A stretch of DNA of 33,867 nt from an uncultured Candidatus Saccharibacteria bacterium. GTDB lineage: Bacteria > Patescibacteriota > Saccharimonadia > Saccharimonadales > UBA7683. This document shows, piece by piece, positions 8,560-31,370 of the stretch. The notes beneath the pieces were generated by a model. The model saw only the letters and a list, made by a program, of their open reading frames with translations, was not told where the DNA came from and did not search any database. The DNA lies in contig CAZUOL010000064.1 of assembly GCA_964621845.1 (NCBI GenBank), forward strand, positions 1-33,867. Reading direction: 5' to 3'. How positions within the stretch are numbered: the first letter of the stretch is position 1; each line of letters begins with the position of its first letter. The translations under genes were made by a program, and so were the position numbers.

Positions 8560-9966
8560 CTAATAGACCTGCTGATAGCTGGTAATAGTCCACGTTTTAG
8601 AGCCACTTGAAAGCTTGGTGCCAAAGGTGATGGTACCGGCACCAGAAAGATCAACAGTTTGACCAACAGCAGCCCCAAGTACACCACTACCACCCACTTT
8701 TATGGTGCCCCAATACGATTGGAATACCATACCCGCGAGATTCGCAGCACCGCCTACATCAACTGTGGTGAGTGATTGGGTTGTTTTCAGCGCGTTGCCT
8801 GAAAGGCTGGTACACGCTGATCCACAGCTGGCGTTGGACTTAAAACTAATAAACTGAATACCCGTACCTGAGCTATTGGCAATTAATTGTGCCGAGCCAG
8901 CCACCGTTATAGTGCCATCAACCACAATAACGGGTGGCTTTGTACCGACACTGTTGGCAACGCGAATTTTAGCTGCGCCTCCAATCGTAAGGTTGCCGGT
9001 GATGTATACATCGCCAGTCACGGTGAGGTCACAGCTGCTTGAATTACTCACATTGCCCGTTAGCTTAAGATTCGCCAGCCAGGTTCTTACAAAACCGTTG
9101 GGGCTTTGCCACTGGCTACAATCGTAGTTAATGGCATTACCGGCAGCGGTGGTGGTCATCCGAGCAATGTGTGCTGCTCTGTCGTATGTAGGTTGCGTGC
9201 CAGGGTCGGTGACGCAGCCAATTTTTAAGCCCTGGCCACCTGTTCCAGTCTGAATATTGTTGTTCGGGCCTTTGCTGGTTTGGCCGGTGGCACAAACCGT
9301 ACCATAAATAGCAGTGCTCTGGGCAAGGCTAATCGGTTGGGTGCTTGAACAGACGGTTGGGTAGGTAGCGCCCGGTGTGGCACCGGTGGGGCAGGCCTGA
9401 TTGGCAACATATACATTCACCGGTTGGTTCGCGGTCCCAATTTTTGCTGCCCCAGAGAGCGATATGGTTACATTCACGAATACATCAGAGTTTGTAATAT
9501 TCGCACTACCGGTCAAAATCAGGCCACCTGGGCCGCTAAAAACAGAATACGATTCTGATCCAGTGCCAACAACGGTCACTTTAATTTTACGTTGGCTCAC
9601 CAGTTTAGAGGGGCTGCTGAGTGTGTAAATCGAGCCTGTTGAGGTAATTGTTTTAGCGTTGTTTGCTGCCGCCGTAACCGTTGTTTGAAAAACACCCCGG
9701 CCTTGCGTCGAGTTGTTAAAGAACTCCTGATTTGTTGCGTAGCCCGTAAAACTATCACTGGCATTGAGCTGGTGAAGCGATTGTTCAATCCCCGCCTCAG
9801 CTGCTAGGAGTGCATTTACATCAGAAACGTTTTTAGTGGTGATTTTAAAATCACTTAATACGAGTGTTACAAGCGCTAAGCCAATAATAGAAAGCGAGAT
9901 GGTAATAATCAGCACTGCACCGAGCAGGCTCCCGTTTTGATTTATTATTTTCAACCGCTTAATCAT
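8560..9966 (-). CDS. Large pilus-associated protein with a PilX_N-type N-terminus and a Gly/Thr/Ser/Asn-rich, probably beta-helical body
   Basis: The N-terminus NQNGSLLGAVLIITISLSIIGLALVTL followed by ALLAAEAGIEQ matches the PilX N-terminal pattern. It is the last gene of the minor-pilin operon, with an 8-nt overlap on the upstream gene. The body has 8 Cys and repetitive motifs such as GxxxITGNLTIGGAAKI. Confidence 0.68.
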   Translation of the reverse strand: MIKRLKIINQNGSLLGAVLIITISLSIIGLALVTLVLSDFKITTKNVSDVNALLAAEAGIEQSLHQLNASDSFTGYATNQEFFNNSTQGRGVFQTTVTAAANNAKTITSTGSIYTLSSPSKLVSQRKIKVTVVGTGSESYSVFSGPGGLILTGSANITNSDVFVNVTISLSGAAKIGTANQPVNVYVANQACPTGATPGATYPTVCSSTQPISLAQSTAIYGTVCATGQTSKGPNNNIQTGTGGQGLKIGCVTDPGTQPTYDRAAHIARMTTTAAGNAINYDCSQWQSPNGFVRTWLANLKLTGNVSNSSSCDLTVTGDVYITGNLTIGGAAKIRVANSVGTKPPVIVVDGTITVAGSAQLIANSSGTGIQFISFKSNASCGSACTSLSGNALKTTQSLTTVDVGGAANLAGMVFQSYWGTIKVGGSGVLGAAVGQTVDLSGAGTITFGTKLSSGSKTWTITSYQQVY

Positions 9967-10627
9967 TTCTAAATACCATCCTTGTTTTATAATCTGCCGT
10001 GATTGTGCGCCCGTAATATTTCTTGCTTAAATTGATCTGCAGCTCAATTGAACGAGCGTTGGTGGGCGTCACCTGATTGTTATCTCCATCATAGTACAAA
10101 ACGGTGAAACTGGTAATGTTTTCAATCAGTTTTTTATCGGCGGGGCAGGAGCTGGTTGCCTTGCTCGCCGGGCAGCTTGTTTTGGTGGCATTATTGGCAA
10201 CGGTTGATGCCAGCGATCTTTTGTATAACGTACCATTTTGTACAAAATAGACATTATTATTTTTCTCGGTAATATACTGTGAGGGGTCAGAAAATACGAT
10301 GTTCTTGCTTGTATCTTGCACCGCAGTGGCAAGTATGAGTGTGCTTGCATTTGAGGTCCAACTATACAAATTGGTTGGCGCACTCGGAGCGTTGTTGTCT
10401 GGCCAGCGATTATTTAAATCCGCATTTGCTGAAAGGCGTGTTTCATCGGCAACCTGATCAAGACCCTGCTGGGCTTGAATGAGCAAGTCACGCCGGGCTT
10501 GAATAACGGCGTAATTGACGAGGCCGTTTGCCATAAAGTTCATGATGACCATAATCAGTAAACTCGTCACAATTACAGATACAAGCACCTCAACAATTGT
10601 GAATCCTTTTTGATCCGTTATTTTCAC
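9959..10627 (-). CDS. Minor pilin / pseudopilin (PilW-like) with a prepilin N-terminal cleavage-methylation motif
   Basis: MKITDQKG|FTIVEVLVSVIVTSLLIMVI is a class III signal (G|FTxxE plus a hydrophobic helix). It overlaps its upstream neighbour by 4 nt. Confidence 0.75.
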   Translation of the reverse strand: MKITDQKGFTIVEVLVSVIVTSLLIMVIMNFMANGLVNYAVIQARRDLLIQAQQGLDQVADETRLSANADLNNRWPDNNAPSAPTNLYSWTSNASTLILATAVQDTSKNIVFSDPSQYITEKNNNVYFVQNGTLYKRSLASTVANNATKTSCPASKATSSCPADKKLIENITSFTVLYYDGDNNQVTPTNARSIELQINLSKKYYGRTITADYKTRMVFRND

Positions 10628-11016
10628 TGTGTTATTCCTATCACGCCAATCAGTGAGCTGAGCTGTACCTTATGCGTTTTATTGCCATCAGGGTAGCTGA
10701 CTGTTACGTCAACACGCTTTAACCCCGAAGTAGGCTCTGAAACAACCACGGTGCCGCTGCTGCCTTTCGGGAGCTTGGGAGAAAGTTGATTGGTAAAATC
10801 TATAGTACTTCCAGTAACCAGCGCGTTGTAATTGTTGTTACGCAGGGTTTCAATTTCACGCTGAGCTGCTCGAGTAGCGTTTTCTTTATAATTCGCCTGG
10901 GTCTGGGTGTTTTGGATACTTACAAATAAACTTGAAAGTGCCATCACTACTATGCCGATGACTATGATGCTGATGATTAACTCAACAATCGTAAACCCAC
11001 GTGTATTCTTATTCAT
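10624..11016 (-). CDS. Minor pilin (PilV-like) with a prepilin N-terminal cleavage-methylation motif
   Basis: From the internal ATG at 11016 the protein starts MNKNTRG|FTIVELIISIIVIGIVV, a short basic leader followed by G|FTIVE. The 25-codon extension in the ORF track (start 11091) runs through a terminator hairpin and a TATAAT box, so I reject it. Confidence 0.75.
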   Translation of the reverse strand: MNKNTRGFTIVELIISIIVIGIVVMALSSLFVSIQNTQTQANYKENATRAAQREIETLRNNNYNALVTGSTIDFTNQLSPKLPKGSSGTVVVSEPTSGLKRVDVTVSYPDGNKTHKVQLSSLIGVIGITQ

Positions 11017-11026
11017 GCTTATCTTT

Positions 11027-11032
11027 ATTATA
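11027..11032 (-). promoter_or_regulatory. -10 box (TATAAT) of the minor-pilin operon
   Basis: A perfect TATAAT on the minus strand lies 10 nt upstream of the ATG at 11016. No SD lies in between, and the -35 region is weak (TTTTGG at 17 nt). Confidence 0.4.
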
Positions 11033-11049
11033 GTACGTTTACTCAAGAA

Positions 11050-11306: not shown

Positions 11307-11954
11307 CTAAGCGCTCAATTGCTGCAAGAATATCGATAGAGGGTAAAGCACTACAAGCCCAGCCAACGCAAAGCAGGGTAGGGTGTACGTGAGCGCCTTA
11401 ATCCAACCAAGCTGGGGGCTACTACCGCTGCGGAGTCCAAACTGCTTGATGAGCTTGAGGTCCATCTCTGTAAGATGCGTATCAATGAAAGGTGGGTAAT
11501 TTGAAAGAATCACTACCGGCCAAATTGCATTAGACGATCTCGTTAGCAATCGCCGCACAATAGTGGTTACGGCAAAGCCTATTTCAAGCCATATTGAAAT
11601 AGAAAAACAGATACAAATAATAGACAAGAGCCCGTTAGGTGACCCGTTCAATGTCAGGGGTGCAATGAGTGCAAAGGTTATCACAAAGATAAGATTTAGC
11701 AGAAAAACAATGGAGGCGATGTCAACAAAGTCACCTCTGCTCAGAAGAGGCACCTTAATCACTCTTTGCTCAAACCAGTCCGAGTAACTTAACGCATTAA
11801 CTTCTTCTGCACTGATCCACACTCTCTGCGGGTATTTCTTCTTATATTGTGGACGATATTTAAGATATACAATCGCTGTATATAGAAACGTTATTAAATT
11901 CGTAAAACATAGTACTAAAGTAATTATCACGGCGGGATTCGCATATTCTTTCAT
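11307..11954 (-). CDS. Hypothetical polytopic membrane protein
   Basis: 215-aa ORF with about 6 hydrophobic segments. I recognise no family. Confidence 0.5.
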   Translation of the reverse strand: MKEYANPAVIITLVLCFTNLITFLYTAIVYLKYRPQYKKKYPQRVWISAEEVNALSYSDWFEQRVIKVPLLSRGDFVDIASIVFLLNLIFVITFALIAPLTLNGSPNGLLSIICICFSISIWLEIGFAVTTIVRRLLTRSSNAIWPVVILSNYPPFIDTHLTEMDLKLIKQFGLRSGSSPQLGWIKALTYTLPCFALAGLVVLYPLSIFLQQLSA

Positions 11955-12200: not shown

Positions 12201-12277
12201 TGGAGGGCCATCTGGGGCTCGAACCCAGGACACCGGGCTTAAAAGGCCCGTGCTCTAACCAACTGAGCTAATGGCCC
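12201..12277 (-). tRNA. tRNA-Lys (anticodon UUU), CCA encoded
   Basis: The reverse complement folds by hand into a cloverleaf: acceptor GGGCCAT/ATGGCCC, D arm GCTC-AGTTGGTTA-GAGC, anticodon arm CGGGC-CTTTTAA-GCCCG (anticodon TTT), variable loop GTGTC, T arm CTGGG-TTCGAGC-CCCAG, discriminator T, CCA. Total 77 nt. Confidence 0.93.
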
Positions 12278-12356
12278 GCACGGTAGTGCAGTAAGTGCAC
12301 GACTAGAATAGTAAAGCATAACAGATGTAAAAAATCAATCTGCTATCATACCAATA

Positions 12357-13817
12357 ATGGTTGGGTGGTTGAAAAGGTACAGACCAACACGTGTTACGCT
12401 TATTGGCTGTCTGCTGGCAAGCATACTCTTTGGTTTGCTCGTGGCACGTCTCTCTTTTGCGCTCAATAGCCAATGGCTGTTTGCCATCCCTATATTGGCC
12501 AGTTTTCTCGCGCGACCAAAATTTATTTCAGTGCTTGCGGTACTTGCCATAGGCTTTATTATTGGCAGCTGGCGTGGAGGTACCTATCTAAGGCAGGTTT
12601 ATAGGTACGAGCAGTTTTTTGGCAGGGCTGTTGCTGTTGTAGGCACAGTCACTGATGATACGAGCTATGATAAAAGCAAGCAGACCGAATTTCATGTTGA
12701 TCACATAGCTATCAATAACCAGCAGTTACCTGGCAAGGTGCGGGTTCGTGGCTTTGGCGCAAACTCTGTTGCGCGCGGTGACCAGGTAAGAGTACTCGGG
12801 ACGTTGAATCGAACTATTGGTACCAGTCAGCAGGCCAGCATTTCTTATTCCTCCATTACTGTTATTGGCAAAAACAGTTCATGGGTGGAAAGAACTCGCA
12901 GTCGATTTTTTGCGGGGGTGTATTCGAGTTTGCCTGAGCCGCAGGCCAGCTTAGGGCTTGGTTTTTTGGTGGGGGTGCGGACAGCATTGCCACAAGATTT
13001 CAGCGATAAACTTGCCTTAGTTGGCTTAACACATATTATTGCAGTGAGCGGTTACAACTTAACGATTATCGTACAAATGGTGCGTAAGCTCTTTGAAAAA
13101 CGCTCTGCCTATCAGTCGGTATTGTTTTCAGGTATTTTGATCTTGTTGTTTTTGCTGATGACCGGCTGGAGCCCGTCAATTATGCGTGCTGCCGTTATCA
13201 CGGGCTTCAGTTTGCTCGCGTGGTATTATGGCCGAACAATTTTGCCAATCATCCTGATTTTACTGGGTGGTGCCATAACCGGGTTTATTAACCCACTTTA
13301 CGTGTGGGGTGATGCCGGTTGGTATCTTTCATTCCTAGCTTTTACGGGTGTTCTTATTCTTTCACCGATCGTCATATGTTTGTTGTATAAAGATGAAAAG
13401 CCAAACTTCTTCATTGCTATTTTAATAGAAACACTTTCGGCAATCTTATTTACGGCGCCCTACATCGCCTGGTTGTTTGGCAAGGTTTCGCTCATAGCTC
13501 CGATTGCAAACATAATTGTCGGTCCGCTGATTCCAATAACCATGCTGCTTGTTTTCTTGGTAGGTGCCATTGCTATATTTGTGCCAGTTCTAGCGCTTTG
13601 GCTGGCAATTTTCCCACGAGCAATCTTAACCTTCGTAGTTTGGGTGGTTGAAAAACTGGCCGCTGTTCCATTCGCCCAAGTTCAGGTGACTATAAGCCCA
13701 GCGCACATGGCCTTCTTCTATGCGCTTTTAGTTGCAATAACGCTTGTGTTGTGGCGCTTGCAAAAACATCGCGAAACCAAACAGCCATCCGCCAAAATCG
13801 ATTGGAATTTGGTATAA
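12357..13817 (+). CDS. comEC: ComEC/Rec2 DNA internalisation channel, short form (DUF4131 OB-fold plus Competence domain, no metallo-beta-lactamase domain)
   Basis: Signature GLTHIIAVSGYNLTIIV, SPSIMRAAV and many TM segments. The N-terminal soluble insert VVGTVTDD...VRVLGTL matches DUF4131. The ORF ends right after the last TM segments at 486 aa. Confidence 0.87.
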   Translation: MVGWLKRYRPTRVTLIGCLLASILFGLLVARLSFALNSQWLFAIPILASFLARPKFISVLAVLAIGFIIGSWRGGTYLRQVYRYEQFFGRAVAVVGTVTDDTSYDKSKQTEFHVDHIAINNQQLPGKVRVRGFGANSVARGDQVRVLGTLNRTIGTSQQASISYSSITVIGKNSSWVERTRSRFFAGVYSSLPEPQASLGLGFLVGVRTALPQDFSDKLALVGLTHIIAVSGYNLTIIVQMVRKLFEKRSAYQSVLFSGILILLFLLMTGWSPSIMRAAVITGFSLLAWYYGRTILPIILILLGGAITGFINPLYVWGDAGWYLSFLAFTGVLILSPIVICLLYKDEKPNFFIAILIETLSAILFTAPYIAWLFGKVSLIAPIANIIVGPLIPITMLLVFLVGAIAIFVPVLALWLAIFPRAILTFVVWVVEKLAAVPFAQVQVTISPAHMAFFYALLVAITLVLWRLQKHRETKQPSAKIDWNLV

Positions 13818-13859: not shown

Positions 13860-14573
13860 ATGTCAGGGCATAGTAAGTGGTCAACAATTAAGCGGCAAAA
13901 AGAGGCAACCGATGCCAAGCGTGGAGCAGTGTTTACAAAAATGGGCAATCAAATCGCCATTGCTGCGCGCGGCGGCACCGATCCTGCCACAAACTCGGCA
14001 TTGGCGCTTGCAATCGACCGTGCTAAAGCGGCCAATATGCCCCTTGCTAATATTCAACGAGCCATAGATAGGGTGGCTGATAAAAATGCTGCTCAGCTCG
14101 AAGAGGTGGTGTACGAAGGTTATGGTCCGGGTGGTATCGGCCTCATTATTGAGGCGGCAACAGACAATAAAAACCGCACCTTTCCAGATGTCAGAACGGC
14201 ATTGACGAAGAACGGTGGCACAGTTGCCGAGCCCGGGAGTGTCGCTTTTCAATTTACAAGAAAGGGCGTCATTACAGTCGCAGCTAAAGGTGAAGATGCG
14301 CTGCTGACAGTTTTAGATGCGGGTGCTGATGATGCCATCGAAGAAGATGAAGGAATCGTTGTCTATACTGAGGCCAAAGAACTTGCCAAAGTTAGAACTG
14401 CGATTAAAGAGGCGGGGCTTGAAGTGAAGGACGCCGAGCTTCAGTATGTACCGAATAACACAATCGAGATAACCGACAAAGAGGTTGCTCGTAAAATTAT
14501 GAATATCATGGATGCCGTTGACGATCTTGATGATGTGACGGCCGTGCACAGCAACTTTGAAATCATAGAGTAA
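13860..14573 (+). CDS. yebC: YebC/PmpR family DNA-binding transcriptional regulator
   Basis: MSGHSKWSTIKRQKEATDAKRGAVFTKMGNQI... is the invariant YebC N-terminus, and the 237-aa length is typical. Confidence 0.93.
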   Translation: MSGHSKWSTIKRQKEATDAKRGAVFTKMGNQIAIAARGGTDPATNSALALAIDRAKAANMPLANIQRAIDRVADKNAAQLEEVVYEGYGPGGIGLIIEAATDNKNRTFPDVRTALTKNGGTVAEPGSVAFQFTRKGVITVAAKGEDALLTVLDAGADDAIEEDEGIVVYTEAKELAKVRTAIKEAGLEVKDAELQYVPNNTIEITDKEVARKIMNIMDAVDDLDDVTAVHSNFEIIE

Positions 14574-14631
14574 TTTTAAGCAAACGCTGAAAGTTTTGAC
14601 AGCTCAATAAGCACGGGCGTATTATTTTGGT

Positions 14632-16350
14632 ATGAAGCGGGTGGGCATCTTGTTTCTGGTGTTATTGCTCAACGTTATCTTTTCGCGTGCGCTTTTTGCA
14701 AGCGCCGTCGTCATTTCGCAAATAAAGGCGGGCAATTCTTCGGCACCACGCTTGATCGAGCTCTATAACAATACTGAAAATGCGGTTGATGTTACAGATT
14801 GGTGTGTCTACTATGCGAGCGCGGCCTCAAATCCAGCTATCTCTCAAACTACGCCAAATGAGCGAGCCTGCTTTCACACAACGCAGGCGACGCAGCGGTT
14901 AGTGCTACCGGCTCGGTCGTACATTGTTGTCAGCGCCAACATTACTGGGCTGACAGGCGATTTCACCATGACCGAGGGCCTTGGATCGGGCTCATCGGGA
15001 CACGTTTTCATCGCCGATGCTGGTAAGGCAATACAAGATATAGTTGGGTGGGGAACGGCGCAGTATCCCGAACAGGCGTCAATTATCAACCCGAGTCCGT
15101 ATATTATCGAGCGCAAACAAGCAACTCTCGGGATGTACCAAGATACTGATAATAATGCCGCCGATTTTGCGGCATCGACCCTACGTGCGAATTACCAAGT
15201 TGGCGCACTGACTGAAGCGACTGATGTATGTCTGAACCTAGAAGGATATCAGTCAGCACTCCCTGAGGGCTATGAAGTAACTGATGGTCATAACTGTACC
15301 CTACTGCCGGTGGATATATGCTTGAATATTGACGGGGTTCAGGCTGAGGTGCCTGCTGGTTACCAAGTTGAGGGTAGTGGTGAATGCACGCCTACAGATC
15401 CAGCACCCGATCCCAATCAGGGTCCTGATCCTATCCCAAGTAATATTCCACTTGAAATCACTGAGTTGCTACCCAATGCGATCGGTGCTGATGAAGGGGC
15501 TGAGTTTATTGAAATTCATAACCCGAACAGTACCCCAATTGGGCTCGATGGCTACCAATTGAATGTGGGGCCTGGTTTCGAAAAGCATTATAGTTTTCCG
15601 CCCAACACTGAAATAGGGCCTGAACAGTATCTGGCATTCTATAATTCGGAGATAAACTTTACATTGGTGAACACAACCAGTCGCGTGCGGCTGGTCGCAC
15701 CCACTGGCGCTGTAGTCAGTACTACTGAAAGCTACCAAGACCCTGCCGATGGGCAAAGCTGGTCACTGTTTGATGATGGCTGGAAGATCACTGATAGTTC
15801 GACTCCGAACGCTCCAAATCAATACACCCTGAATGAAAGTACTGATGAAACGAGCAGCACAGGGTCTACTCTCACGCCGTGCCGTGCTGATCAGTATCGC
15901 AACCCATTAACGAACCGCTGCAAATTAAAAGCCAGTGCATCCGGCGTGCTGAAGGCCTGCGCAGCGGATCAGGTAAGAAACCCTGAAACTAATCGCTGTC
16001 GTAAATTAAGCACCGCAGTCACCTCGCTATCTCCGTGTAAGGTTGGCCAAGAGCGGAACCCCGAAACCAATCGGTGTCGTAAAATAGGTGCCGGCACGTC
16101 TAGCTTGAAACCTTGTCAGCCAGGTTATGAGCGCAATCCTGAAACTAATCGCTGTCGAAAGGGCTCTGCTAAACTAAGCGGCGCGCTCGCAGAGCCTGCT
16201 GCCATTAGCCCCATCAATCTAAGTAGCAGAATCATTGTTTTGCTGGTTGCAATGGCACTCGCCTACGGAGCATATGAATATAAAACAGATATCAAGCACT
16301 TGATTGATCGTCTGCGTAGTAAACGAGGCGACCCAAGACCACCTGGCTAG
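14632..16350 (+). CDS. Membrane-anchored surface protein with two lamin-tail domains (LTD), two CLN-x-G-x-Q modules and four Cys-bracketed basic repeats
   Basis: Signal peptide MKRVGILFLVLLLNVIFSRALFASA. LTD-like segments VISQIKAGNSSAPRLIELYN...VTDW and LEITELLPNAIGADEGAEFIEIHNPNSTPIGLDGYQL. Four repeats of C-x12-C (consensus C..GQ.RNPETNRC-RK). A C-terminal TM segment and a basic tail. Confidence 0.8.
   Translation: MKRVGILFLVLLLNVIFSRALFASAVVISQIKAGNSSAPRLIELYNNTENAVDVTDWCVYYASAASNPAISQTTPNERACFHTTQATQRLVLPARSYIVVSANITGLTGDFTMTEGLGSGSSGHVFIADAGKAIQDIVGWGTAQYPEQASIINPSPYIIERKQATLGMYQDTDNNAADFAASTLRANYQVGALTEATDVCLNLEGYQSALPEGYEVTDGHNCTLLPVDICLNIDGVQAEVPAGYQVEGSGECTPTDPAPDPNQGPDPIPSNIPLEITELLPNAIGADEGAEFIEIHNPNSTPIGLDGYQLNVGPGFEKHYSFPPNTEIGPEQYLAFYNSEINFTLVNTTSRVRLVAPTGAVVSTTESYQDPADGQSWSLFDDGWKITDSSTPNAPNQYTLNESTDETSSTGSTLTPCRADQYRNPLTNRCKLKASASGVLKACAADQVRNPETNRCRKLSTAVTSLSPCKVGQERNPETNRCRKIGAGTSSLKPCQPGYERNPETNRCRKGSAKLSGALAEPAAISPINLSSRIIVLLVAMALAYGAYEYKTDIKHLIDRLRSKRGDPRPPG
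15880..16161 (+). repeat. In-frame tandem coding repeats (4 copies, about 81-nt period) encoding C-x12-C basic modules
   Basis: CRADQYRNPLTNRCKLK / CAADQVRNPETNRCRKL / CKVGQERNPETNRCRKI / CQPGYERNPETNRCRKG, separated by Ser/Thr/Ala-rich 9-aa linkers. The copies differ at synonymous sites, so they are old repeats. Confidence 0.85.
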
Positions 16351-16367
16351 AATACATTCATCACATA

Positions 16368-16396
16368 AAGCCGAGCTTTACCGCTCGGTTTTTTTA
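16368..16396 (+). terminator. Rho-independent terminator after the LTD gene
   Basis: CCGAGC-TTTACC-GCTCGG followed by T7 (16389-16395). Confidence 0.65.
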
Positions 16397-16419
16397 TAGT
16401 AAATACGTATACTTAAGGT

Positions 16420-16895: not shown

Positions 16896-16924
16896 TTGAC
16901 AAACATAAGCTTTTTTGCTAACAT
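16896..16924 (+). promoter_or_regulatory. Sigma-70-type promoter upstream of the 47-aa ORF
   Basis: Consensus TTGACA (16896-16901), a 17-nt spacer, then TAACAT (16919-16924) with an extended -10 TG (16916-16917). Confidence 0.5.
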
Positions 16925-16962
16925 AGTATTGTTACAACATAAAACAAATAAAAGGAACAAAA

Positions 16963-20229: not shown

Positions 20230-20256
20230 TCTAACGGCCGCGCTATAGTAAGAGTA

Positions 20257-22962: not shown

Positions 22963-22964
22963 CG

Positions 22965-23553: not shown

Positions 23554-24225
23554 ATGAAAGTGACCAAGATTCAGCAACAGCAGAAACGGAAAGACAGGTA
23601 TTCAATTTATATTAATGAAAAATATCTCTTTTCGCTCAACGAATTTCAGTTGGCTGGCTCGGGCTTAAGAATTGGTAAAGAGCTTACACCGAGTGAGGTT
23701 GAAAATTTTGCAACAGAGTCGCAATTTGGGAAGGCATACGAGCGTAGTTTGAATTACGTTATGGTTCGCCCAAGAAGCCAAAAAGAAATCAAAGACTACC
23801 TTACTCGCACCTATTTGTACCCCAAGCCAAAATCATATGTTGATAAAAACGGTCAAAGACATTTTAAGCAACAAGAAGTCGACAAGGCCAAAGTATCAAA
23901 TTTGATTGTGCGGGTAATGGAACGCCTGGCCGACAAGGGCCATATAAATGATCAAAGATTTACTGAATCTTGGGTGCAATCGCGGATGCTACATAAAAAC
24001 CCAAGTAAACGAAAACTAGAGCAGGAATTATACGCGAAAGGAATTGATCAAAAAATAATTGCGACGGTGTTGCAAAATGAAGACTTGAATGAGCAGGATA
24101 ACTTGCTTGAGCTTGTAAAAAAGAAGCGTAAACTGCTACGCTATCAAGACGACCAGAAGCTTATCGCCTATTTGCTTCGCCAAGGGTTTAACTATGACGA
24201 CATCAGAGATATCATCAACGAATGA
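23554..24225 (+). CDS. recX: RecA regulator RecX
   Basis: KRKDRYSIYINEKYLFSL at the N-terminus and repeated three-helix units (KAYERSLNYVMVRPRSQKEIKDYL, VMERLADKGHINDQRFTESWV, LIAYLLRQGFNYDDI). I prefer the ATG at 23554 to the TTG at 23536. Confidence 0.85.
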   Translation: MKVTKIQQQQKRKDRYSIYINEKYLFSLNEFQLAGSGLRIGKELTPSEVENFATESQFGKAYERSLNYVMVRPRSQKEIKDYLTRTYLYPKPKSYVDKNGQRHFKQQEVDKAKVSNLIVRVMERLADKGHINDQRFTESWVQSRMLHKNPSKRKLEQELYAKGIDQKIIATVLQNEDLNEQDNLLELVKKKRKLLRYQDDQKLIAYLLRQGFNYDDIRDIINE

Positions 24226-24490
24226 AAGGAGTCTCGAGCTCCAGCTACTTATAGCAGAGCGTGCAGCAGAAGTTGTTGATCACGTTGCTGAAGCAAACGG
24301 GCATCTATGGCGCGAGAGAGGCTTGCTGTTTGCGGCATCGTTTCAGACTGGGAAAGCACAAAAGGCGGCATTAAAGGAAAACGGCCAGCGTATTGTGCAG
24401 GCACATAAAGCAAATGAAGTGGTACTTCGGTTTATGGGCAGCTATTTTTTATCTAAAGAAGATTCAGCTGATGGAGTCAGCGGTGACTGA
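24194..24490 (+). CDS. Hypothetical 98-aa ORF (doubtful)
   Basis: ATG inside the recX 3' end with a weak AAGGG SD. It fills the gap between recX and the convergent PRC-barrel gene but overlaps both. I recognise no family. Confidence 0.3.
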   Translation: MTTSEISSTNERSLELQLLIAERAAEVVDHVAEANGHLWRERGLLFAASFQTGKAQKAALKENGQRIVQAHKANEVVLRFMGSYFLSKEDSADGVSGD

Positions 24491-25032
24491 GCTTTTCGGA
24501 ACGGGTTCAACACCTGTGTGAGGCCCGTTTGCTGTTGTACTGCCCCAGATCGGACTACAATGACACGATCATTCATTTCAACAATCTGAGCGCGATTAAT
24601 GATAAGGTCGGAACTGGTCAGATTTTTAAACATTGATTGACCAACATGTATTTTTTGTATGAAAAAACTATCTACATCGACTGCATAATCAACTACTTTG
24701 CCGAGCTTTCGTTTTTGTTCGTCTATCACCATTTTACCAATAAGGTTGAAATGAAAACCAATCACCTCGTTTAAGCGGACCAGGTCTTCGCTCACCTCCA
24801 TAATATCGTCAGCATTATTTACAATAAATCCCAATGGCCCGTACTCACGAATGTCAGAAGTGTGGATGACGCTCTCACTGTGTATGCGTGGGCCACTTGC
24901 GTAGTATGCAATAATCTGTAGTTTGCGAGGATCAATAATGGGGTGTTGGGCTAGGCCAAGCTTGCCACCATTTTGCAAACTCATAATAGGCACGTTCTCC
25001 AAGTTCTTGTAGAGTACAAGCATATGGCCCAT
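24442..25032 (-). CDS. Tandem PRC-barrel domain protein
   Basis: Two segments fit the PRC-barrel/YlmC-like pattern: LENVPIMSLQNGGKLGLAQHPIIDPRKLQIIAYY and LIGKMVIDEQKRKLGKVVDYAVDVDSFFIQKIHV. Divergent from pilB. Confidence 0.55.
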   Translation of the reverse strand: MGHMLVLYKNLENVPIMSLQNGGKLGLAQHPIIDPRKLQIIAYYASGPRIHSESVIHTSDIREYGPLGFIVNNADDIMEVSEDLVRLNEVIGFHFNLIGKMVIDEQKRKLGKVVDYAVDVDSFFIQKIHVGQSMFKNLTSSDLIINRAQIVEMNDRVIVVRSGAVQQQTGLTQVLNPFRKAQSPLTPSAESSLDKK

Positions 25033-25099: not shown

Positions 25100-26884
25100 A
25101 TGAACATAGCCGATAAAACAGTAAAGCAAATCCTCATTGATAGTAAAAAGCTTAAAAAAACTGAGCTTGAAAAGCTCGAGGAGTCGGCACATCGCACCAA
25201 AAAAGCGCTGCAAGAGACAGCTCTGAAGCAGGGTGTGATTACTGATGAGGAGTTAGTGAAGTGGTACGCAGAGCTCACTGAGACACCGTTTATTAAGGTT
25301 GACCCAAAATCGATAGACCCAACACTGCTTAATTTGATACCCGAGCGTATCGCGCGCCGCTACTCAGCAGTTGTATTTGGCGAAAAAGATGGCGTGAAGC
25401 TGCTCGCCATGGAAGACCCTGAGGACGTGCAGGCGGTTGATTTTATTGAAAAGCAGCTTGGCTCTAAGCCCACGTTATACATTGCGACAAAACAAAATAT
25501 CTCGAGCGCACTCGAACTCTATGGTGGAGGGGTCGACAACGAACTCACCCGAGTGATCGCAGAAGACACTGAGGGCGAAACCGATGCTGCTGAAGAGGTT
25601 GATGAAGCTGATCTCGCCGAGGATTCCCCTATTGCCCAAACTGTCACCTTGCTGATCGAGTATGCCATTAAGGCGGGCGCATCAGATGTGCACATTGAAC
25701 CGCGTGAGGGTTATGTACAGGTGCGTTATCGCGTAGACGGGGTGCTTCGTGAGGCAGAAAAGTTGCCCAAAAAGGTGCAGGCTGCCCTTACCAGCCGTAT
25801 TAAAATTCTGGCGAACTTAAAAATAGATGAACATCGTGTTCCGCAGGATGGCCGCTTTAAGATTTCTTATGCTGATAAATCGTTTGCACTCCGCGTTTCA
25901 ACGCTGCCAATTGCCGATGGGGAGAAGGTGGTTATTCGTTTACTCGATGAGTCAAACAAAGCTAAAACACTTGAAGAGCTGGGCTTTTGGGGTAGTGCAC
26001 TTAAAACCATCAACGATGCCATCATACAACCACATGGCATGATTTTAGTAACGGGGCCGACTGGCTCAGGCAAGTCAACCACGCTGTACAGTGTACTTTC
26101 GTTGTTGAATGACGAAACAGTAAATATCTCAACTGTGGAAGATCCTATTGAGTATAAAATTGTGGGGGCAAATCAAACGCAGGTGAATGTGAAAGCGGGC
26201 ATGACTTTTGCCTCGGGGTTACGCGCGCTGCTGCGTCAGGACCCTAACGTTATTATGGTTGGCGAGGTCCGCGATCGCGAAACTGCCGATATGGCAGTGC
26301 AAGCATCGCTTACCGGGCACCTGGTCTTTTCAACACTGCATACAAACAATGCAGCAACCTGTTTGCCGCGTTTGCTTGATATGGGGGTAGAACCCTTTCT
26401 TATTGCTTCAACTACCCGTTCGGTGATAGGGCAGCGTCTTGTGCGCAATATCTGTATGGACTGTCGCGAATCGTACCAACCGGATGAGACGGAAGTTACT
26501 GAAATTAAAAAGATGTTTAAATTAACCGATGCCGCTGTCTTCAAAAAAATGAATGAACTCGAAGCAGTTGCCCTCAAACAGGGGATTGGCCCAGCGGATA
26601 AAGCGCTTGCTACCTCAGCCTCAACCATCACCCGATTATATCGCCCCAAAGAAGGAGGGTGCGATAAATGCGGAGGCAGCGGTTTCCGCGGTCGTGTTGG
26701 TATCTATGAGGTGCTTGGCAATAGCGAAGAGGTACAGAAACTGATCATGCAGAACGCGACAAGTGAGGTCATTCAAGAAGAGGCAATCAACGAGGGCATG
26801 GTCACTATGCAACTGGATGGGCTTATCAAAGCCTTTCGTGGCCTTACCTCTGTGAAAGAGATTTTGAGAGTAACGAGAGAATAG
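25100..26884 (+). CDS. pilB: Type IV pilus assembly ATPase PilB (GspE/PulE family)
   Basis: N-terminal T2SSE_N domain, Walker A GPTGSGKSTT, Asp box, Walker B IMVGEVRD, His box TGHLVFSTLHTN and a C-terminal tetracysteine motif (CMDC ... CDKCGGSG). Confidence 0.93.
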   Translation: MNIADKTVKQILIDSKKLKKTELEKLEESAHRTKKALQETALKQGVITDEELVKWYAELTETPFIKVDPKSIDPTLLNLIPERIARRYSAVVFGEKDGVKLLAMEDPEDVQAVDFIEKQLGSKPTLYIATKQNISSALELYGGGVDNELTRVIAEDTEGETDAAEEVDEADLAEDSPIAQTVTLLIEYAIKAGASDVHIEPREGYVQVRYRVDGVLREAEKLPKKVQAALTSRIKILANLKIDEHRVPQDGRFKISYADKSFALRVSTLPIADGEKVVIRLLDESNKAKTLEELGFWGSALKTINDAIIQPHGMILVTGPTGSGKSTTLYSVLSLLNDETVNISTVEDPIEYKIVGANQTQVNVKAGMTFASGLRALLRQDPNVIMVGEVRDRETADMAVQASLTGHLVFSTLHTNNAATCLPRLLDMGVEPFLIASTTRSVIGQRLVRNICMDCRESYQPDETEVTEIKKMFKLTDAAVFKKMNELEAVALKQGIGPADKALATSASTITRLYRPKEGGCDKCGGSGFRGRVGIYEVLGNSEEVQKLIMQNATSEVIQEEAINEGMVTMQLDGLIKAFRGLTSVKEILRVTRE

Positions 26885-26886
26885 CA

Positions 26887-28110
26887 ATGCCTGAATTTAC
26901 CTATAAAGCACTCAATAAAGATGGCACTCCCACAGAAGGTGTGGTAGAAGCTGAAACGCGTGAGGCGGCGACGGAAACCGTTAAAAAGCAGGGGATGAAA
27001 CCACTGAGTATTGTAGAAGGGAAAAAAGGTGGCGGCATTCTTTCTTTTAACCTCAATAACAAGGTGAAGACAAAAGACCTGGTTATTTTTACCCGTGAAT
27101 TAGCAACGTTGGTGAATGCAGGCGTTCCATTAACTCGTTCGCTGAACACGCTGCAGCAGCAGGCGGAAAGCGCGGTACTTAAAAAACAACTTGCCTCGGT
27201 AGTGAAGCGCGTCGAATCGGGCGCCTCATTGGGTGATTCGCTGGCGGCGTTTCCTAAAACATTCTCTGCGATTTATGTGAATATGGTGCGAGCCGGCGAA
27301 GAAGGCGGTATTTTAGATGACGTGCTGAAGCGTCTTGCCATGCAGCAAGAAAAAGATGCTGCGATCCGGGCAAAAATTAAAAGTGCCATGACATACCCTG
27401 CGGTGATCTCGGTCATTACTTCAGTTGCGTTTATCTTCTTAATGACAAGCGTCGTTCCAAAAATTGGCGATATCATTACCAATATCGGTGGTGAAGGTGC
27501 TTCTCTACCGGTTTATACCGTTGCGCTGTTAAAAATAAGTGCAGTGATGAAAACACCACTTTTTCTTGGATTGTTATTTATTGTTGGCCCGGCGGTGTTC
27601 ATCACCTTCAGACGCTACATTAAAACAAAAAAAGGGCGCTTTGTGTGGCACACAGTACTGTTGAAAATACCAATTGTAAAAACGCTTATTACCAAAGTGG
27701 CGATTGCGCGGTTTGCACGGACATTCTCATCACTGATGGGGGCTGGTGTTACTATTCTGCAAGCCATTAGTACCACGGCCGGGGCGATTGGCAACGCAGT
27801 GATTGAAAAAGAGCTCCTTGATAGTGCCAAGGCAGTACAGGCAGGCGGGCAGCTTTCTGAACAACTCAAAGGCAGCAAGGTGTTCCCACCACTGGTAAGC
27901 GAGATGCTCGCGGTAGGTGAAGAGACCGGTAAAACGGATGAAATACTCGTAAAGGTTGCTGAGTTTTATGAAGAAGAAGTAGACGCCTTTGTAGGCGCTC
28001 TTGCATCGATTATTGAACCACTGATGATTGTGGTGCTCGGTGCCATAGTGGGGTTTATTGCGGCGAGTGTGTTTGGGCCTATCAGTCAACTTTCTTCACA
28101 GATTCACTAA
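26887..28110 (+). CDS. pilC: Type IV pilus platform protein PilC (GspF family)
   Basis: Two GspF repeats (FTRELATLVNAGVPL... and FARTFSSLMGAGVTIL...) with 3 TM segments. 407 aa. Confidence 0.93.
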   Translation: MPEFTYKALNKDGTPTEGVVEAETREAATETVKKQGMKPLSIVEGKKGGGILSFNLNNKVKTKDLVIFTRELATLVNAGVPLTRSLNTLQQQAESAVLKKQLASVVKRVESGASLGDSLAAFPKTFSAIYVNMVRAGEEGGILDDVLKRLAMQQEKDAAIRAKIKSAMTYPAVISVITSVAFIFLMTSVVPKIGDIITNIGGEGASLPVYTVALLKISAVMKTPLFLGLLFIVGPAVFITFRRYIKTKKGRFVWHTVLLKIPIVKTLITKVAIARFARTFSSLMGAGVTILQAISTTAGAIGNAVIEKELLDSAKAVQAGGQLSEQLKGSKVFPPLVSEMLAVGEETGKTDEILVKVAEFYEEEVDAFVGALASIIEPLMIVVLGAIVGFIAASVFGPISQLSSQIH

Positions 28111-28245: not shown

Positions 28246-28644
28246 ATGAATAAAATTAAACAATTAAGCCGAAGCGGTTTTACGATTGTCGAGCTTTTGA
28301 TCGTCATCGTAGTTATCGGTATCTTGGCTGGTCTGGTGTTTGTCCAGTTCAACAACGTTCAGGGTCGCGCACGTGACAGTGAACGTAAAGCTGACATCCG
28401 CCTGATCGAAAGTAAGCTTGCAGAGTACCGCGCAGACAACAGCGCGTACCCAGCTGCATTGTCTGATCTTTCAGACATCCCAGCTGAAGCACTTGCTGGT
28501 CCAAAGAGTGGTGAAACATACACCTACACAGCTACTGCAACAGGTGGCGGTGCATGTACAACAGCAGCTAAAGACTGTGCGAACTATACAATTTCTTCAA
28601 CAAACATGGAGAAAGAATCAAACCCATACTCACATTCTCAGTAG
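28246..28644 (+). CDS. pilA: Type IV major pilin (PilA-like)
   Basis: MNKIKQLSRSG|FTIVELLIVIVVIGILAGLV class III signal, a strong SD, its own promoter and terminator, and a C-terminal Cys pair (CTTAAKDC). I start it at the ATG at 28246, not the GTG at 28237. Confidence 0.88.
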   Translation: MNKIKQLSRSGFTIVELLIVIVVIGILAGLVFVQFNNVQGRARDSERKADIRLIESKLAEYRADNSAYPAALSDLSDIPAEALAGPKSGETYTYTATATGGGACTTAAKDCANYTISSTNMEKESNPYSHSQ

Positions 28645-28660
28645 TAGGGTAACGCACAGA

Positions 28661-28692
28661 AAAACTGCCTCTTTTGAGGCAGTTTTTCTTTT
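28661..28692 (+). terminator. Rho-independent terminator after the pilin gene
   Basis: CTGCCTC-TTTT-GAGGCAG (28665-28682) followed by TTTTTCTTTT and preceded by an A-run. Confidence 0.75.
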
Positions 28693-28743: not shown

Positions 28744-29829
28744 ATGAGTATGCAAAAACAACCACTTTTTTATTACAAACGGCCAGTTTTTGGCCTTGAT
28801 GTTGGTTCGCAGAGTATTAAGGTGATGCAGCTCGAGCACACCAAGCATGGTGCGAAGGTGGTTGGATATGGTAACACGAAGACTACCGAAAAAATCATCA
28901 AAGATGGGGTGATTGTTGCAGTTCCCGAAACTGCAAAACTTATCGATCAACTATTGGCAAACGAGCTGAAGGGGCGGCTCACGACGAACCGGGTAGTAAT
29001 GGGCATACCTGTTTCGCATGTTTTTACGCGAGTACTCACGCTGCCGCAGATGTCAAAGAAGGAGCTGCATGCTGCAGTCGAACTTGAGGTGGAGCAGTCA
29101 GTGCCGCTTGCACCAAAAGAACTCTACTTTGATTATGAGGCGACAGGCGGTCTTGATTCAAAAGAGGTGCTTGTTCGCATGGTCGCGGCGCCACGTAAGA
29201 TAGTGGATTCATATGTGCAGGTGTGCGAATTGTTGCGACTCGATCTCGCTCTGGTACAGACTAACATCGAGGCTGATTCACAGCTTTGTATGTTATATGA
29301 AGACATGAAACGTGGCACCCCGTACATTATTGTCGACGTCGGTGGTGTTTCGGTTGATGTTGGCATACTGGATGCAACACTCCGTGTGACAGGAACGGTT
29401 GATACGGGCGGCGAACATTTTACTGATGCAGTTGCAAAAGTGCTTCATGTTTCGCGCACGAAAGCTCAACATATCAAGATCACCAGTGGTATTAATGCTG
29501 GCCCGCAGCAGGAAAAGATGAAGGCCGCCCTAGACCCTCTGTTCGATAAGGTAGTTGAAGAAATTAAACGTATTAAAAAGTTTTATACAAACCGTGTACA
29601 GCAAGAGGCCGATATAACACAGATTGTTATAACAGGCGGTGGCGCGAACGTACCTGGGTTAGGAGACTATCTCACGAACGCAACGAGAATACCCACCAAG
29701 GTATCATCGCCATGGACAAAGCACATTTCATTTGGCCATCTTCAATCACCTGATGTCGCAGATTTGCCACGGTTTTTGACTGCTGCGGGCTTAGCTTTAG
29801 CGAAAGACGAGGACGTGATGCATGATTAA
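28744..29829 (+). CDS. pilM: Type IV pilus assembly protein PilM (actin-like ATPase fold)
   Basis: FGLDVGSQSIKVMQLE, IIVDVGGVSVDVGIL and VITGGGANVPGL are actin/FtsA-like phosphate and adenosine motifs in PilM order. Confidence 0.88.
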   Translation: MSMQKQPLFYYKRPVFGLDVGSQSIKVMQLEHTKHGAKVVGYGNTKTTEKIIKDGVIVAVPETAKLIDQLLANELKGRLTTNRVVMGIPVSHVFTRVLTLPQMSKKELHAAVELEVEQSVPLAPKELYFDYEATGGLDSKEVLVRMVAAPRKIVDSYVQVCELLRLDLALVQTNIEADSQLCMLYEDMKRGTPYIIVDVGGVSVDVGILDATLRVTGTVDTGGEHFTDAVAKVLHVSRTKAQHIKITSGINAGPQQEKMKAALDPLFDKVVEEIKRIKKFYTNRVQQEADITQIVITGGGANVPGLGDYLTNATRIPTKVSSPWTKHISFGHLQSPDVADLPRFLTAAGLALAKDEDVMHD

Positions 29830-30481
29830 TCTACTGCCCCCAAGTGAACGAATCGCTATGGCTATTGCAAAGCGAAATACACTGCTGCGACGCTACCTGG
29901 AGTTTATGCTGCTTGGCATCCTACTCCTCACCCTCTTGGTTATCGGCTCGTACTATTATCTTTCTTTGCAATATACAAACACCAAAAAAACACTGGAATT
30001 GAATCAACAAAAGTTGGCGCAGCTTGAGCCGAAACAAAAAGAAGCCGAAGAACTTTCAACAACGGTCAATACGATTGCGGCACTTTTTTCGAGAGATGTT
30101 ACGTTTTCGAAAATGTTAACCCAAATAGGCCAATTAATGCCAGAAAAAACAGTGCTTACTAAGCTGGAGCTTTCGAGTGCCGATAGTCAGGCGCCTCTGA
30201 ATATTACTGCCCAGGTTGATTCGGAGGAGCGAGCGGCAGTACTCCGCAATAACCTTGCAAGCTCAACAGTATTTAGTAAGGCGAACATTATCTCGATTAC
30301 CAAAATAGGGGCTGACACACAAACGGGCACATCAGCAACGAGCGGCAGCACTACGCCAGCGCCTACGAACACTTCAGGTTCAACGAGCTCGTCGACCCAG
30401 ACGCTGGCCAAGGATTCACCGTATAAATTCGCCGTTGTTATAGAGGCTTATCTTAAGCCCGTAAATGGAGTGAAAAAATGA
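29822..30481 (+). CDS. pilN: PilN-like bitopic pilus alignment protein
   Basis: N-terminal INLLP motif, one TM segment and a coiled coil, then an unusual Ser/Thr-rich insert (GTSATSGSTTPAPTNTSGSTSSST). 8-nt overlap with pilM. Confidence 0.7.
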   Translation: MINLLPPSERIAMAIAKRNTLLRRYLEFMLLGILLLTLLVIGSYYYLSLQYTNTKKTLELNQQKLAQLEPKQKEAEELSTTVNTIAALFSRDVTFSKMLTQIGQLMPEKTVLTKLELSSADSQAPLNITAQVDSEERAAVLRNNLASSTVFSKANIISITKIGADTQTGTSATSGSTTPAPTNTSGSTSSSTQTLAKDSPYKFAVVIEAYLKPVNGVKK

Positions 30482-31080
30482 CGCCCAAAAAAATGAATCT
30501 TGCGCTGAAGGTTCTCATTGGTGTTCTCATAGCAATTACCGTTGCTGGGCTGTATTTTGCTAACCAAAAGTTGACGCGGCTTGCTACTGAAACGGCAAAG
30601 CTTAAAACAGATATTGAAGTGACCAACCAGCGCATAAAAGATTACGAGCTCACTGAAGCGAAGGTCAATCAGCTGAGTTACGTAAAAGATCTTGCGGCGC
30701 AAATTGTTCCGCAAAATGAAGATCAATCGGCCATTGTTGCCGAGCTAGCAGAATTTGCTCGTCGCTCGAACCTGCAGACGGGAGCAATAACCTTCGATGA
30801 AACCGCACAGACAACGACAGCACCAGTAACAAGCACCGCCAAGGCGGTAAAGCCCCCCGCAGGCGTGGGCATCGTGCCTGTTATTTTCACCGTGGGTGAT
30901 AGTGCAAAATACGAAGACGTACTCGCGTTTTTAAGATACATCGAAGCAAATCGGCGTAAAATGCAGGTGACACAGATTACACTTACCCCAAATGGCGACA
31001 ACGGTAATTTACTTGATAATGTGATACTCTCACTCAACCTCTTTGTGAAAAAGCCGGTTGAACAAGGAGCAAAAAAATGA
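30478..31080 (+). CDS. pilO: PilO-like bitopic pilus alignment protein
   Basis: One TM segment, a coiled coil and a C-terminal ferredoxin-like segment (VPVIFTVGDSAKYEDVLAFLRYIEANRRKMQVTQITL) typical of PilO. ATGA overlap with pilN. Confidence 0.68.
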   Translation: MTPKKMNLALKVLIGVLIAITVAGLYFANQKLTRLATETAKLKTDIEVTNQRIKDYELTEAKVNQLSYVKDLAAQIVPQNEDQSAIVAELAEFARRSNLQTGAITFDETAQTTTAPVTSTAKAVKPPAGVGIVPVIFTVGDSAKYEDVLAFLRYIEANRRKMQVTQITLTPNGDNGNLLDNVILSLNLFVKKPVEQGAKK

Positions 31081-31370
31081 AGGCAAAGGTGAAGGGCTAT
31101 CTACTCAAGACCAAAGAGGTGCTCACTAAAAATCAAGCATTTGTTTCAGCATGTATTTTTTTGGGGATCGCAGCATTCGTGTTGTATCGTCTTATGGTGC
31201 TTAGTAATATCGGACCCGATAGTGCTGCAATATTAGACCAGCAAAGAACAATAAAAACAGTACAGTTTAATCAACAGGCAATTGATCAAATTGAAGAGCT
31301 GCGAGATAGCAACGTAAAGACCCCGGGCACCGACATACAGAAGAACCGCCAGAATCCTTTTGCCGAGTAA
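31077..31370 (+). CDS. Hypothetical 97-aa single-pass membrane protein, translationally coupled to pilO
   Basis: ATGA overlap with the pilO stop. One TM segment (FVSACIFLGIAAFVLYRLMVL). I recognise no family. Confidence 0.55.
   Translation: MKAKVKGYLLKTKEVLTKNQAFVSACIFLGIAAFVLYRLMVLSNIGPDSAAILDQQRTIKTVQFNQQAIDQIEELRDSNVKTPGTDIQKNRQNPFAE

Follow-up and report, generated by a model that had tools for sequence, protein, structure and literature searches.

Why should the genes of a type IV pilus (T4P), the competence gene comEC and the recombination genes ruvA, ruvB, ruvC, recA and recX lie within 23 kb of each other in the genome of an uncultured Saccharibacterium? The question is not trivial, for Saccharibacteria lack the ability to synthesise nucleotides, and taking up DNA is a long-standing proposal for how they are supplied; a locus coupling uptake, recombination and salvage would have given direct genomic support for this idea. 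The first-pass annotation of the stretch considered here (33,867 nucleotides of contig CAZUOL010000064.1, the whole of which we call the window) proposed positions 8560 to 31370 as a candidate for such a DNA-acquisition super-locus, with two pilus loci bracketing nearly all of the genes for DNA uptake and recombination. The evidence points elsewhere: with a probability of roughly 70%, the region is an inherited neighbourhood of separate operons of clade-G1 Saccharibacteria and not a dedicated machine, and its pilus genes are parts of a single system, T4P-2, that local rearrangement has split. The window adds a lineage-specific, rearranged member to a neighbourhood that published Saccharibacteria genomes already show and of which one part, T4P locus two with recAX, has been described. 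No report of the comEC-ruv-recA-pilus linkage as such was found in the searchable literature.

The source lineage is a clade-G1 Saccharibacterium, whose RecA is 75-84% identical to that of many Saccharibacteria metagenome-assembled genomes (MAGs). Genes were called from a six-frame list of 43 open reading frames (ORFs) and Pfam scans, and tRNA genes with ARAGORN and Rfam. All of the genes that had been listed at first are present, in the order, at the coordinates and on the strands given then, and a second assembly (ENA NODE_489, locus L086 in our numbering of related and control loci) agrees with 7 mismatches over 20,414 bases, so that the gene order is no assembly artefact. The genes on which the argument turns are the following (E-values after domain names):

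8560-9966, minus strand: large PilX-like minor pilin (468 aa), last in the minor-pilin operon; weak PilX_N and DUF7305 matches.
9959-10627, minus: minor pilin (222 aa; N_methyl 2e-5), prepilin motif GFTIVE; homologues in L090, L082 and L013.
10624-11016, minus: minor pilin (130 aa from an internal ATG; N_methyl 7e-7), heads the operon, with a TATAAT box ending 10 nt 5' of the ATG.
12201-12277, minus: tRNA-Lys(UUU) (ARAGORN, Rfam), a conserved landmark directly upstream of comEC.
12357-13817, plus: comEC (486 aa; Competence domain PF03772 4e-35; weak OB/DUF4131).
13860-14573, plus: yebC (PF01709, PF20772).
14632-16350, plus: surface protein (572 aa) with two lamin-tail domains (LTD 2.5e-21, two stretches).
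16420-16881, plus: ruvC (PF02075 3.5e-48).
17890-18471, plus: ruvA (RuvA_N, HHH_5, RuvA_C).
18782-19195, plus: orf137, predicted nucleoside 2-deoxyribosyltransferase (NDT)-superfamily fold; gaps of about 2 bp to cutA and ruvB; alternative start 18755.
19198-20229, plus: ruvB (RuvB_N 2.5e-79).
20257-20979, plus: bacterial-PH (bPH) membrane protein (bPH_2 2e-5), downstream of ruvB.
21052-21453, minus: orphan pilin, PilJ-type (N_methyl 5e-7), divergent from recA.
21536-22567, plus: recA (RecA 4.6e-143).
23554-24225, plus: recX (RecX_HTH1, 2 and 3).
24442-24984, minus: PRC-barrel protein (PRC 1e-4), convergent with recX.
25100-28110, plus: pilB (594 aa; MshEN and T2SSE) and pilC (407 aa; T2SSF), the putative T4P-2 assembly ATPase and platform.
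28246-28644, plus: major-pilin-like gene (N_methyl, T2SSG) with a conserved GFTIVELLIVIVVIGILA N-terminus and its own promoter region.
28744-31370, plus: pilM-pilN-pilO-orf97, overlapping genes (PilM_2 5e-37, PilN 9e-7, PilO E = 0.11).

To speak of almost the whole uptake and recombination set was an overstatement, since dprA, comF, comEA, ssb, pilT, pilD, recFOR, recG, recJ and radA are not found among the 43 window ORFs by Pfam.

Is the arrangement peculiar to this genome? We searched with tblastn for all window proteins in the surroundings (±10 kb) of recA from 80 species representatives (22 Saccharibacteria, 57 other bacteria). recX follows recA in 21/22 Saccharibacteria loci and the PRC gene follows recX in 20/22. 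Flank-based counts were made on the 16/22 loci with several kb on both sides, where ruvB occurs within 10 kb of recA in eight, a PilB at least 50% identical in nine and both in six; tsaE and/or tsaB, which in the window lie beyond orf97, occur in 11/16. Neither ruvB nor comEC was found within 10 kb of recA in any of the 57 non-Saccharibacteria loci, and pilB was found there in three (L056, L062 and L073). In the latter, which are Peribacteria, deltaproteobacterial and Ectothiorhodospiraceae MAGs, the pilB-type ATPase lies just downstream of recA (at 14255, 4711 and 10986, respectively). The string comEC-yebC-ruvC-ruvA-ruvB-bPH is repeated in further loci found via ComEC and via orf137; a metagenome scan with ComEC gave five mostly short loci, which confirm comEC-yebC-ruvCAB and tell little on the minor pilins. 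yebC adjoins comEC and ruvC in most related loci, and the bPH gene also follows ruvB in L001, L004, L005, L008, L023, L090-L093, L095 and Southlakia epibionticum. The arrangement therefore recurs across G1 Saccharibacteria and in none of the 57 controls, a recurrence that reflects one ancestral arrangement and not many independent events. More distant Saccharibacteria (L010-L012, L015-L017, L021) keep recA-recX-PRC, with no pil operon within 10 kb and with ruv absent or partial.

It is of some weight that the genes without a link to DNA behave in the same manner: the retention of yebC, the LTD and PRC genes, tsaE/tsaB and the upstream genes rimK and dnaJ roughly equals that of the DNA and pilus genes, so that general synteny accounts for much of the conservation. 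Genes of unrelated function occupy the flanks of the window (dnaK/dnaJ, VKOR, LysE, ATP-grasp and RimK genes, RNase Y). Upstream of the cluster, at 4851-8005, stand ATP-grasp, RimB-like protease, RimK and DUF192 genes, and this group holds the same relative position, at least partly, in S. epibionticum, L005, L091, L093 and L095; synteny thus reaches well past the DNA genes. As to chance, in random placements of 13-20 DNA-uptake, recombination and pilus units on a circle of 0.7-1.2 Mb, 0.1-5% of trials put five units within 23 kb and 1-5% put four within 20 kb. The clustering exceeds chance modestly and is nominally non-random, for a category of genes that was chosen post hoc.

The pilus genes are the mobile part of this neighbourhood, the pil block occurring in at least five configurations around recA-recX-PRC. 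It occupies the gap between bPH and recA, divergent from recA, in L008, L090, L092 and L093 (likewise in L002, L006 and L013 it is directly upstream of recA and divergent from it, with ruv and bPH not within 10 kb); it follows PRC in inverted orientation in L001, L003, L004 and L019, follows PRC in direct orientation in the window, is split in L005, and in L091, L095 and probably L014 is represented by a pilin and a 441-aa ATPase beside recA. This last two-gene unit (L091 16357-18201, L095 16964-18803, L014 about 8270-10000) encodes a pilin and a T2SSE-type ATPase divergent from recA, no pilC, pilM, pilN or pilO being nearby, and may represent either a minimal remnant or a separate unit that retains the pairing with recA. 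An orphan pilin holds the same recA-adjacent position as in the window in L003, L004, L019 and L023. The most telling locus is L090, where the pil genes form a single pilB-to-pilO operon next to bPH, and where each of the three minor pilins of the window has a homologue between pilC and pilM (40-46% identity; 40% for that of the 468-aa protein). Since this one operon unites the minor pilins with the machinery, the two pilus loci that seemed to bracket the cluster are fragments of one system. The bracketing is also specific to the lineage, since neither S. epibionticum nor L005 carries a pilin operon on the upstream side of comEC.

Which system this is can be read by comparison with Nanosynbacter lyticus TM7x. 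There, T4P locus two (TM7x_03095-03145) comprises pilB2, pilC2, pilM2, pilN2 and pilO2 with recAX and one pilin and has no pilT, and locus three (TM7x_02975-02995) consists of five pilins (ISME J 2025, PMC12206443; preprint PMC11623550); locus two is limited to clade G1 (PMC12206443). In the window we find pilB, pilC, pilM and pilN (with PilO at the weak E = 0.11) as an assembly set without a retraction ATPase, no pilT or pilD, no second T2SSE and no Peptidase_A24 being detected with Pfam. We also find recA-recX with one orphan pilin as the neighbour of recA, and a separate minor-pilin cluster that includes a large PilX2-type protein of the same system. All of these features are shared with TM7x; PilB and PilC measure 594 and 407 aa here and PilB2 and PilC2 592 and 408 aa there, and the spacer between pilin and recA shares a ATTATAGCAAA...GTATAAT motif with the upstream primer for TM7x pilJ. 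By lengths, collinearity and this primer-derived motif, the pilus genes of the window probably correspond to T4P-2. The two genomes differ in that a major-pilin-like gene fills the pilC/pilM gap here whereas pilA2 of TM7x is in locus three, in that there are three minor pilins here and five in TM7x, in that the machinery is co-directional with recA here, and in that the minor pilins lie upstream of comEC here, while in TM7x their cluster lies on the other side, 16 genes away from pilB2.

The assignment matters because the pilus had been credited with DNA uptake. In TM7x, deletion of pilB2 abolishes the thin pili, and T4P-2 mutants (pilA2, pilX2, pilB2, pilC2 and others) bind the host poorly but show wild-type twitching and competence (PMC12206443). 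That these mutants transform like the wild type speaks against a role of this pilus in uptake. pilJ, the TM7x counterpart of the window's orphan pilin, could not be deleted (PMC12206443), and the preprint remarks that the essential pilin by recA "hints at DNA uptake" (PMC11623550).

Southlakia epibionticum ML1 tells about the remaining genes. Table S1 of its description gives SEML1_0758-0784, which run from pilB to DnaJ, in the order seen in the window and with gene lengths that are almost the same (Cell 2023, PMC10633639). Both share the DnaJ and RimK genes, tRNA-Lys, ComEC, YebC, LTD, RuvC, RuvA, RuvB, PH, the pilin, RecA, RecX, PRC and pilO/N/M/C/B; ComEC is of similar gene length with the same Pfam domains PF03772 and PF13567, and tRNA-Lys adjoins it (SEML1_0778/0777). 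They differ in that S. epibionticum has a transglycosylase in the ruvC/ruvA gap where the window has a Y1 transposase, has neither cutA nor orf137 in its ruvAB, lacks the minor-pilin operon upstream of comEC and carries the pil block inverted relative to the window. Its other DNA genes (RecF, ComF, SSB, PilT, RecJ, DprA, RecR, RecG and RadA; as a set SEML1_0003, 0021, 0098, 0109, 0169, 0298, 0398, 0505 and 0510) are scattered, and no ComEA is annotated (PMC10633639).

Transposon-insertion sequencing (Tn-seq) calls for S. epibionticum are given for three time points (NE, non-essential; GD, growth defect; ES, essential; PMC10633639). RuvB is ES/ES/ES, RuvA and RuvC are NE/GD/ES, and RecA is NE/NE/GD, i.e. 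its loss causes a growth defect; the recA-adjacent pilin SEML1_0768 is NE/GD/ES and the positional counterpart of the LTD protein, SEML1_0775, is NE/ES/ES and thus essential. pilB and pilC (SEML1_0758/0759, of lengths matching the window genes) are NE/NE/GD, pilM, pilN, pilO and a 90-aa ORF (SEML1_0760-0763, sizes again matching) are NE/GD/GD, and PRC (SEML1_0764), RecX, the PH protein (SEML1_0769), YebC and ComEC are NE throughout (PMC10633639). comEC is needed for transformation, but comEC, comF and dprA are not fitness genes, from which the authors concluded that this species does not need the com system to acquire nucleotides (PMC10633639). The proposal that imported DNA serves as nucleotide source is thereby weakened. 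Nor are the recombination genes likely to be devoted to imported DNA: with ruvABC essential, recA causing a growth defect and comEC dispensable, they would serve general chromosome maintenance, and not imported DNA only.

The layout of the transcription signals gives little room for a single regulated unit. Seven protein-coding genes and tRNA-Lys interrupt the cluster on the opposite strand, and two strong terminators divide it:

16367-16392, plus strand: strong intrinsic terminator 3' of the LTD gene (10-bp stem, 5 GC pairs, T-run).
about 28660-28690, plus: terminator 3' of the major-pilin-like gene (28246-28644), visible in the sequence.

A TAnnnT -10 box ends 4-12 nt 5' of the start codon in 14/43 genes against a background of 14%, and the genes concerned are the first of apparent units, including the first minor pilin, comEC, LTD, ruvC, bPH, pilJ, pilB and tsaE. 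A -10 box that ends 5-8 nt 5' of the start codon, with no Shine-Dalgarno motif, marks many first genes of units and is seen for instance at 12340-12356, 14616-14631, 16405-16419, 20240-20256 and 31392-31409, and the pattern suggests that leaderless mRNAs are widespread in the window. The LTD gene has its own promoter-like site, TTGACA-18-TATTAT, at 14596-14625. The genes internal to operons overlap or are closely spaced (ruvA-cutA-orf137-ruvB; recA-orf130-hydrolase-recX-orf98, orf98 being a small ORF between recX and the PRC gene; pilM-N-O-orf97), and several of them carry Shine-Dalgarno motifs. A comparison of the sequence 5' of recA between the window and 22 related loci showed no SOS or competence box and no common operator; only the -10 boxes are conserved there. 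With genes on both strands, many promoters and two strong terminators, the cluster is not one operon; to judge from these signals, it is in all probability a row of a dozen or so separately promoted units.

The most novel element of the window is orf137, for which an NDT-superfamily fold is predicted. Its product, read from the true start, is 137 aa long. Of the 1913 homologues, none contains a Pfam domain and several are labelled Saccharimonadales, and identities range from 68 to 100% among the 120 matches listed. Neither the single sequence nor a profile gave a meaningful match in the Protein Data Bank (PDB); only the comparison of folds did. An alignment-based AlphaFold model (predicted local distance difference test, pLDDT, 94; predicted template-modelling score, pTM, 0.88) retrieved with Foldseek the CMP N-glycosidase BcmB, YtoQ, several nucleoside 2-deoxyribosyltransferases and DNPH1 as best PDB folds (top entries 4jen, 8of6, 8rh3, 7o62, 1s2d and DNPH1), with probability 1.0 and E-values of 2e-4 to 2e-2 at TM-scores of only 0.5-0.6. 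Against Pfam PF05014 it scores 13.5 bits, below the gathering cutoff of 28.8 (E = 0.079), and its invariant Glu94 in GGN[SA]FLEMG aligns by hhalign with the E-x-G of a PF05014 protein of L090 at a pairwise E of only 0.011. orf137 thus appears to resemble the NDT/DNPH1/BcmB superfamily in its high-confidence predicted fold and in a Glu that aligns with the E-x-G position, and differs from it in falling below the Pfam cutoff and in forming a tight Saccharimonadales family of its own. The initial description of an NDT-like gene inside the ruv operon accordingly agrees with the model at the level of the fold, and the protein is a predicted enzyme. The gene sits in the ruvA/ruvB gap in four genomes (the window, L090, L092 and L093), directly upstream of comEC in two (L091, L095) and beside MazG in two (L094, L096), NUDIX and kinase genes being also near in L096. 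It is therefore linked to ruvAB or comEC in 6/8 genomes examined, and this linkage to ruv and comEC within the sub-clade is real. In its surroundings we also observed a gene for a true PF05014 deoxyribosyltransferase, upstream of comEC at a distance of 2 kb (L090, 4620-5030, minus strand), genes of the Exo_endo_phos nuclease/phosphatase family a few kb upstream of comEC (L092, 1-521 and 4652-5371, minus) and another Exo_endo_phos gene near orf137 (L094, 8115-8921, minus).

How would such a neighbourhood have come about? The inherited order would be dnaJ, rimK, tRNA-Lys, comEC, yebC, LTD, ruvC, ruvA, ruvB, bPH, orphan pilin (minus strand), recA, recX, PRC (minus strand) and T4P-2 machinery. In it, ruvCAB, recA and recX would provide general homologous recombination and fork repair, needed for growth regardless of DNA import; comEC would be the DNA-import channel for natural transformation, as in the relative, and T4P-2 a thin host-binding pilus. 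We infer that T4P-2 was ancestrally a single operon, as it is in some relatives between ruvB/bPH and recA, and that it was split in three: the minor pilins would have moved upstream of comEC, one pilin would have stayed by recA and the machinery would have gone downstream of PRC, which would create the look of two loci bracketing DNA genes. orf137 would have been inserted into ruvAB within a sub-lineage. The functions are carried over from TM7x and S. epibionticum and would apply to the organism of the window by analogy.

Several observations weigh against this account. A T4P-2 gene is directly divergent from recA in about 12/20 Saccharibacteria species loci despite repeated rearrangement, and L091, L095 and probably L014 keep a pilin and a 441-aa ATPase by recA even without pilC/M/N/O; such a persistent pairing is not obviously predicted by pure historical inertia. 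orf137 relocates and yet stays by ruvAB or comEC in most of the genomes. Furthermore, the experiments come from two oral species in laboratory co-culture and not from the window's organism, and the match with the TM7x system is one of lengths, collinearity and a primer motif, not of sequence-level orthology.

It is tempting to turn these observations into a functional super-locus, in which selection would keep the channel, the recombination enzymes, a DNA-capturing pilus or pilin and a salvage enzyme together for co-expression, for example to use the DNA of lysing hosts for recombination and/or as nucleotides. The clustering is indeed nominally non-random and confined to the clade, the proximity of pil and recA outlasts several rearrangements, orf137 has a predicted NDT-superfamily fold and keeps to ruvAB/comEC or otherwise to MazG, with NUDIX and kinase genes in L096, and the PF05014 and Exo_endo_phos genes by comEC in L090 and L092 would suit such a function, as would the remark of the TM7x authors on the recA-adjacent pilin. 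However, mutants in the T4P-2 machinery and pilins transform normally, comEC, comF and dprA are not fitness genes while the LTD protein and pilJ are essential, dprA, comF, ssb and pilT are located elsewhere, the promoters are many with no shared operator, and unrelated neighbours are just as syntenic, so that we consider this explanation unlikely. With classical competence regulons (comEA, comEC, comFA/FC, dprA, ssbB, recA and T4P) the neighbourhood has ComEC, type IV pilus genes and RecA in common. Classical genes are co-regulated and scattered, whereas some of those considered here lie together and show no sign of co-regulation; comEA, comF, dprA, pilT and pilD are not in the cluster, and in TM7x competence does not depend on the adjacent pilus. 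A narrower version, in which the recA-adjacent essential pilin and not the T4P-2 filament captures DNA, ComEC imports it, RecA/RuvABC recombine it and orf137 converts deoxynucleotides or deoxynucleosides or removes unwanted bases for reuse, seems to us very doubtful; if it were true, orf137 would represent a new family of enzymes with a genetic link to the processing of Holliday junctions.

At the other extreme, conventional operons (yebC-ruvCAB, recA-recX, pilBC/MNO) could have come to lie side by side in a chromosome of roughly 1 Mb by pure coincidence, their common order being due to recent ancestry. yebC-ruvC-ruvAB and recA-recX are widespread ancient operons, the single-genome probability of 0.1-5% applies to a post hoc category, and L010-L012, L015-L017 and L021 keep recA-recX-PRC but not the full cluster. 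Nevertheless the cluster persists at RecA identities of 75-84% and in several rearranged forms whose pieces remain adjacent, and orf137 is independently tied to two different cluster genes, which makes coincidence highly improbable. The inherited neighbourhood is present in two genetically tractable species, in which questions about the pilin-recA pairing, the essential LTD protein and the NDT-like enzyme of ruvAB can be addressed directly.

The uncharacterised genes embedded in the cluster had been put forward as candidate new components of an uptake machine, an idea that finds little in its favour. The PRC gene is non-essential and orf97 is the conserved final gene of the pilMNO operon. The LTD protein carries a signal peptide and, in its C-terminal part, four Cys-bounded repeats and a membrane anchor, and stays in the neighbourhood of related loci, either in the yebC/ruvC gap or after PRC. 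Its repeats (residues about 425-525; 15900-16250) follow the pattern C-x6-RNP-x-TNRC-[RK]-K four times in tandem right before the membrane anchor and match no Pfam family. LTD domains also occur in the extracellular nuclease ExeM, and the protein gives a weak NCBIfam ExeM-LTD match. As its counterpart in S. epibionticum is essential while comEC is not, the main role of the LTD protein is not ComEC-dependent uptake, and its candidacy as a substitute for ComEA was down-weighted for the same reason. comEC itself is a short form without the metallo-beta-lactamase domain.

The remaining features of the cluster are these:

11307-11954, minus strand: orf215, multi-pass membrane ORF (215 aa), with no Pfam or NCBIfam match.
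17213-17827 (or to 17866), minus: gene like IS200/Y1 transposases and REP-associated tyrosine transposases (RAYT; Y1_Tnp 7.5e-9), between ruvC and ruvA.
18468-18779, plus: cutA (CutA1 1e-25), inserted in the ruvAB operon.
22570-23546, plus: orf130 and a serine-hydrolase-fold gene (Ser_hydrolase 4e-8), in the variable recA/recX slot.

tblastn found no counterpart of cutA, orf130, orf98 and orf215 in 31 related loci; cutA was seen in this strain's contigs alone, and orf130 gave no family match either. The serine-hydrolase gene is sporadic, being present among related loci only in L003, L006 and L008. orf215 was considered as a prepilin peptidase and rejected, as it has no A24 peptidase signature and is not conserved. 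NCBIfam searches on ten uncharacterised ORFs returned nothing usable besides the weak ExeM-LTD match and a sub-threshold RAYT match, and Rfam nothing in the window beyond the tRNA. The Y1 transposase gene passes the Pfam Y1_Tnp threshold (36 against 23 bits) and scores 41 against an 80-bit cutoff for NCBIfam REP_Tyr_transpos; no flanking REP palindromes were found nearby. A homologue 51% identical lies between pilB and recA in L006 (at about 9221), so that the same type of element has landed in two gaps of the neighbourhood. Finally, between ruvC and the transposase gene (16896-17106) there is a strong promoter-like site, made up of TTGACA, a 17-nt spacer and TAACAT preceded by a TG. Behind it comes an ORF of 47 aa that carries a Shine-Dalgarno motif and that the public annotations of L086 and L088 likewise contain.

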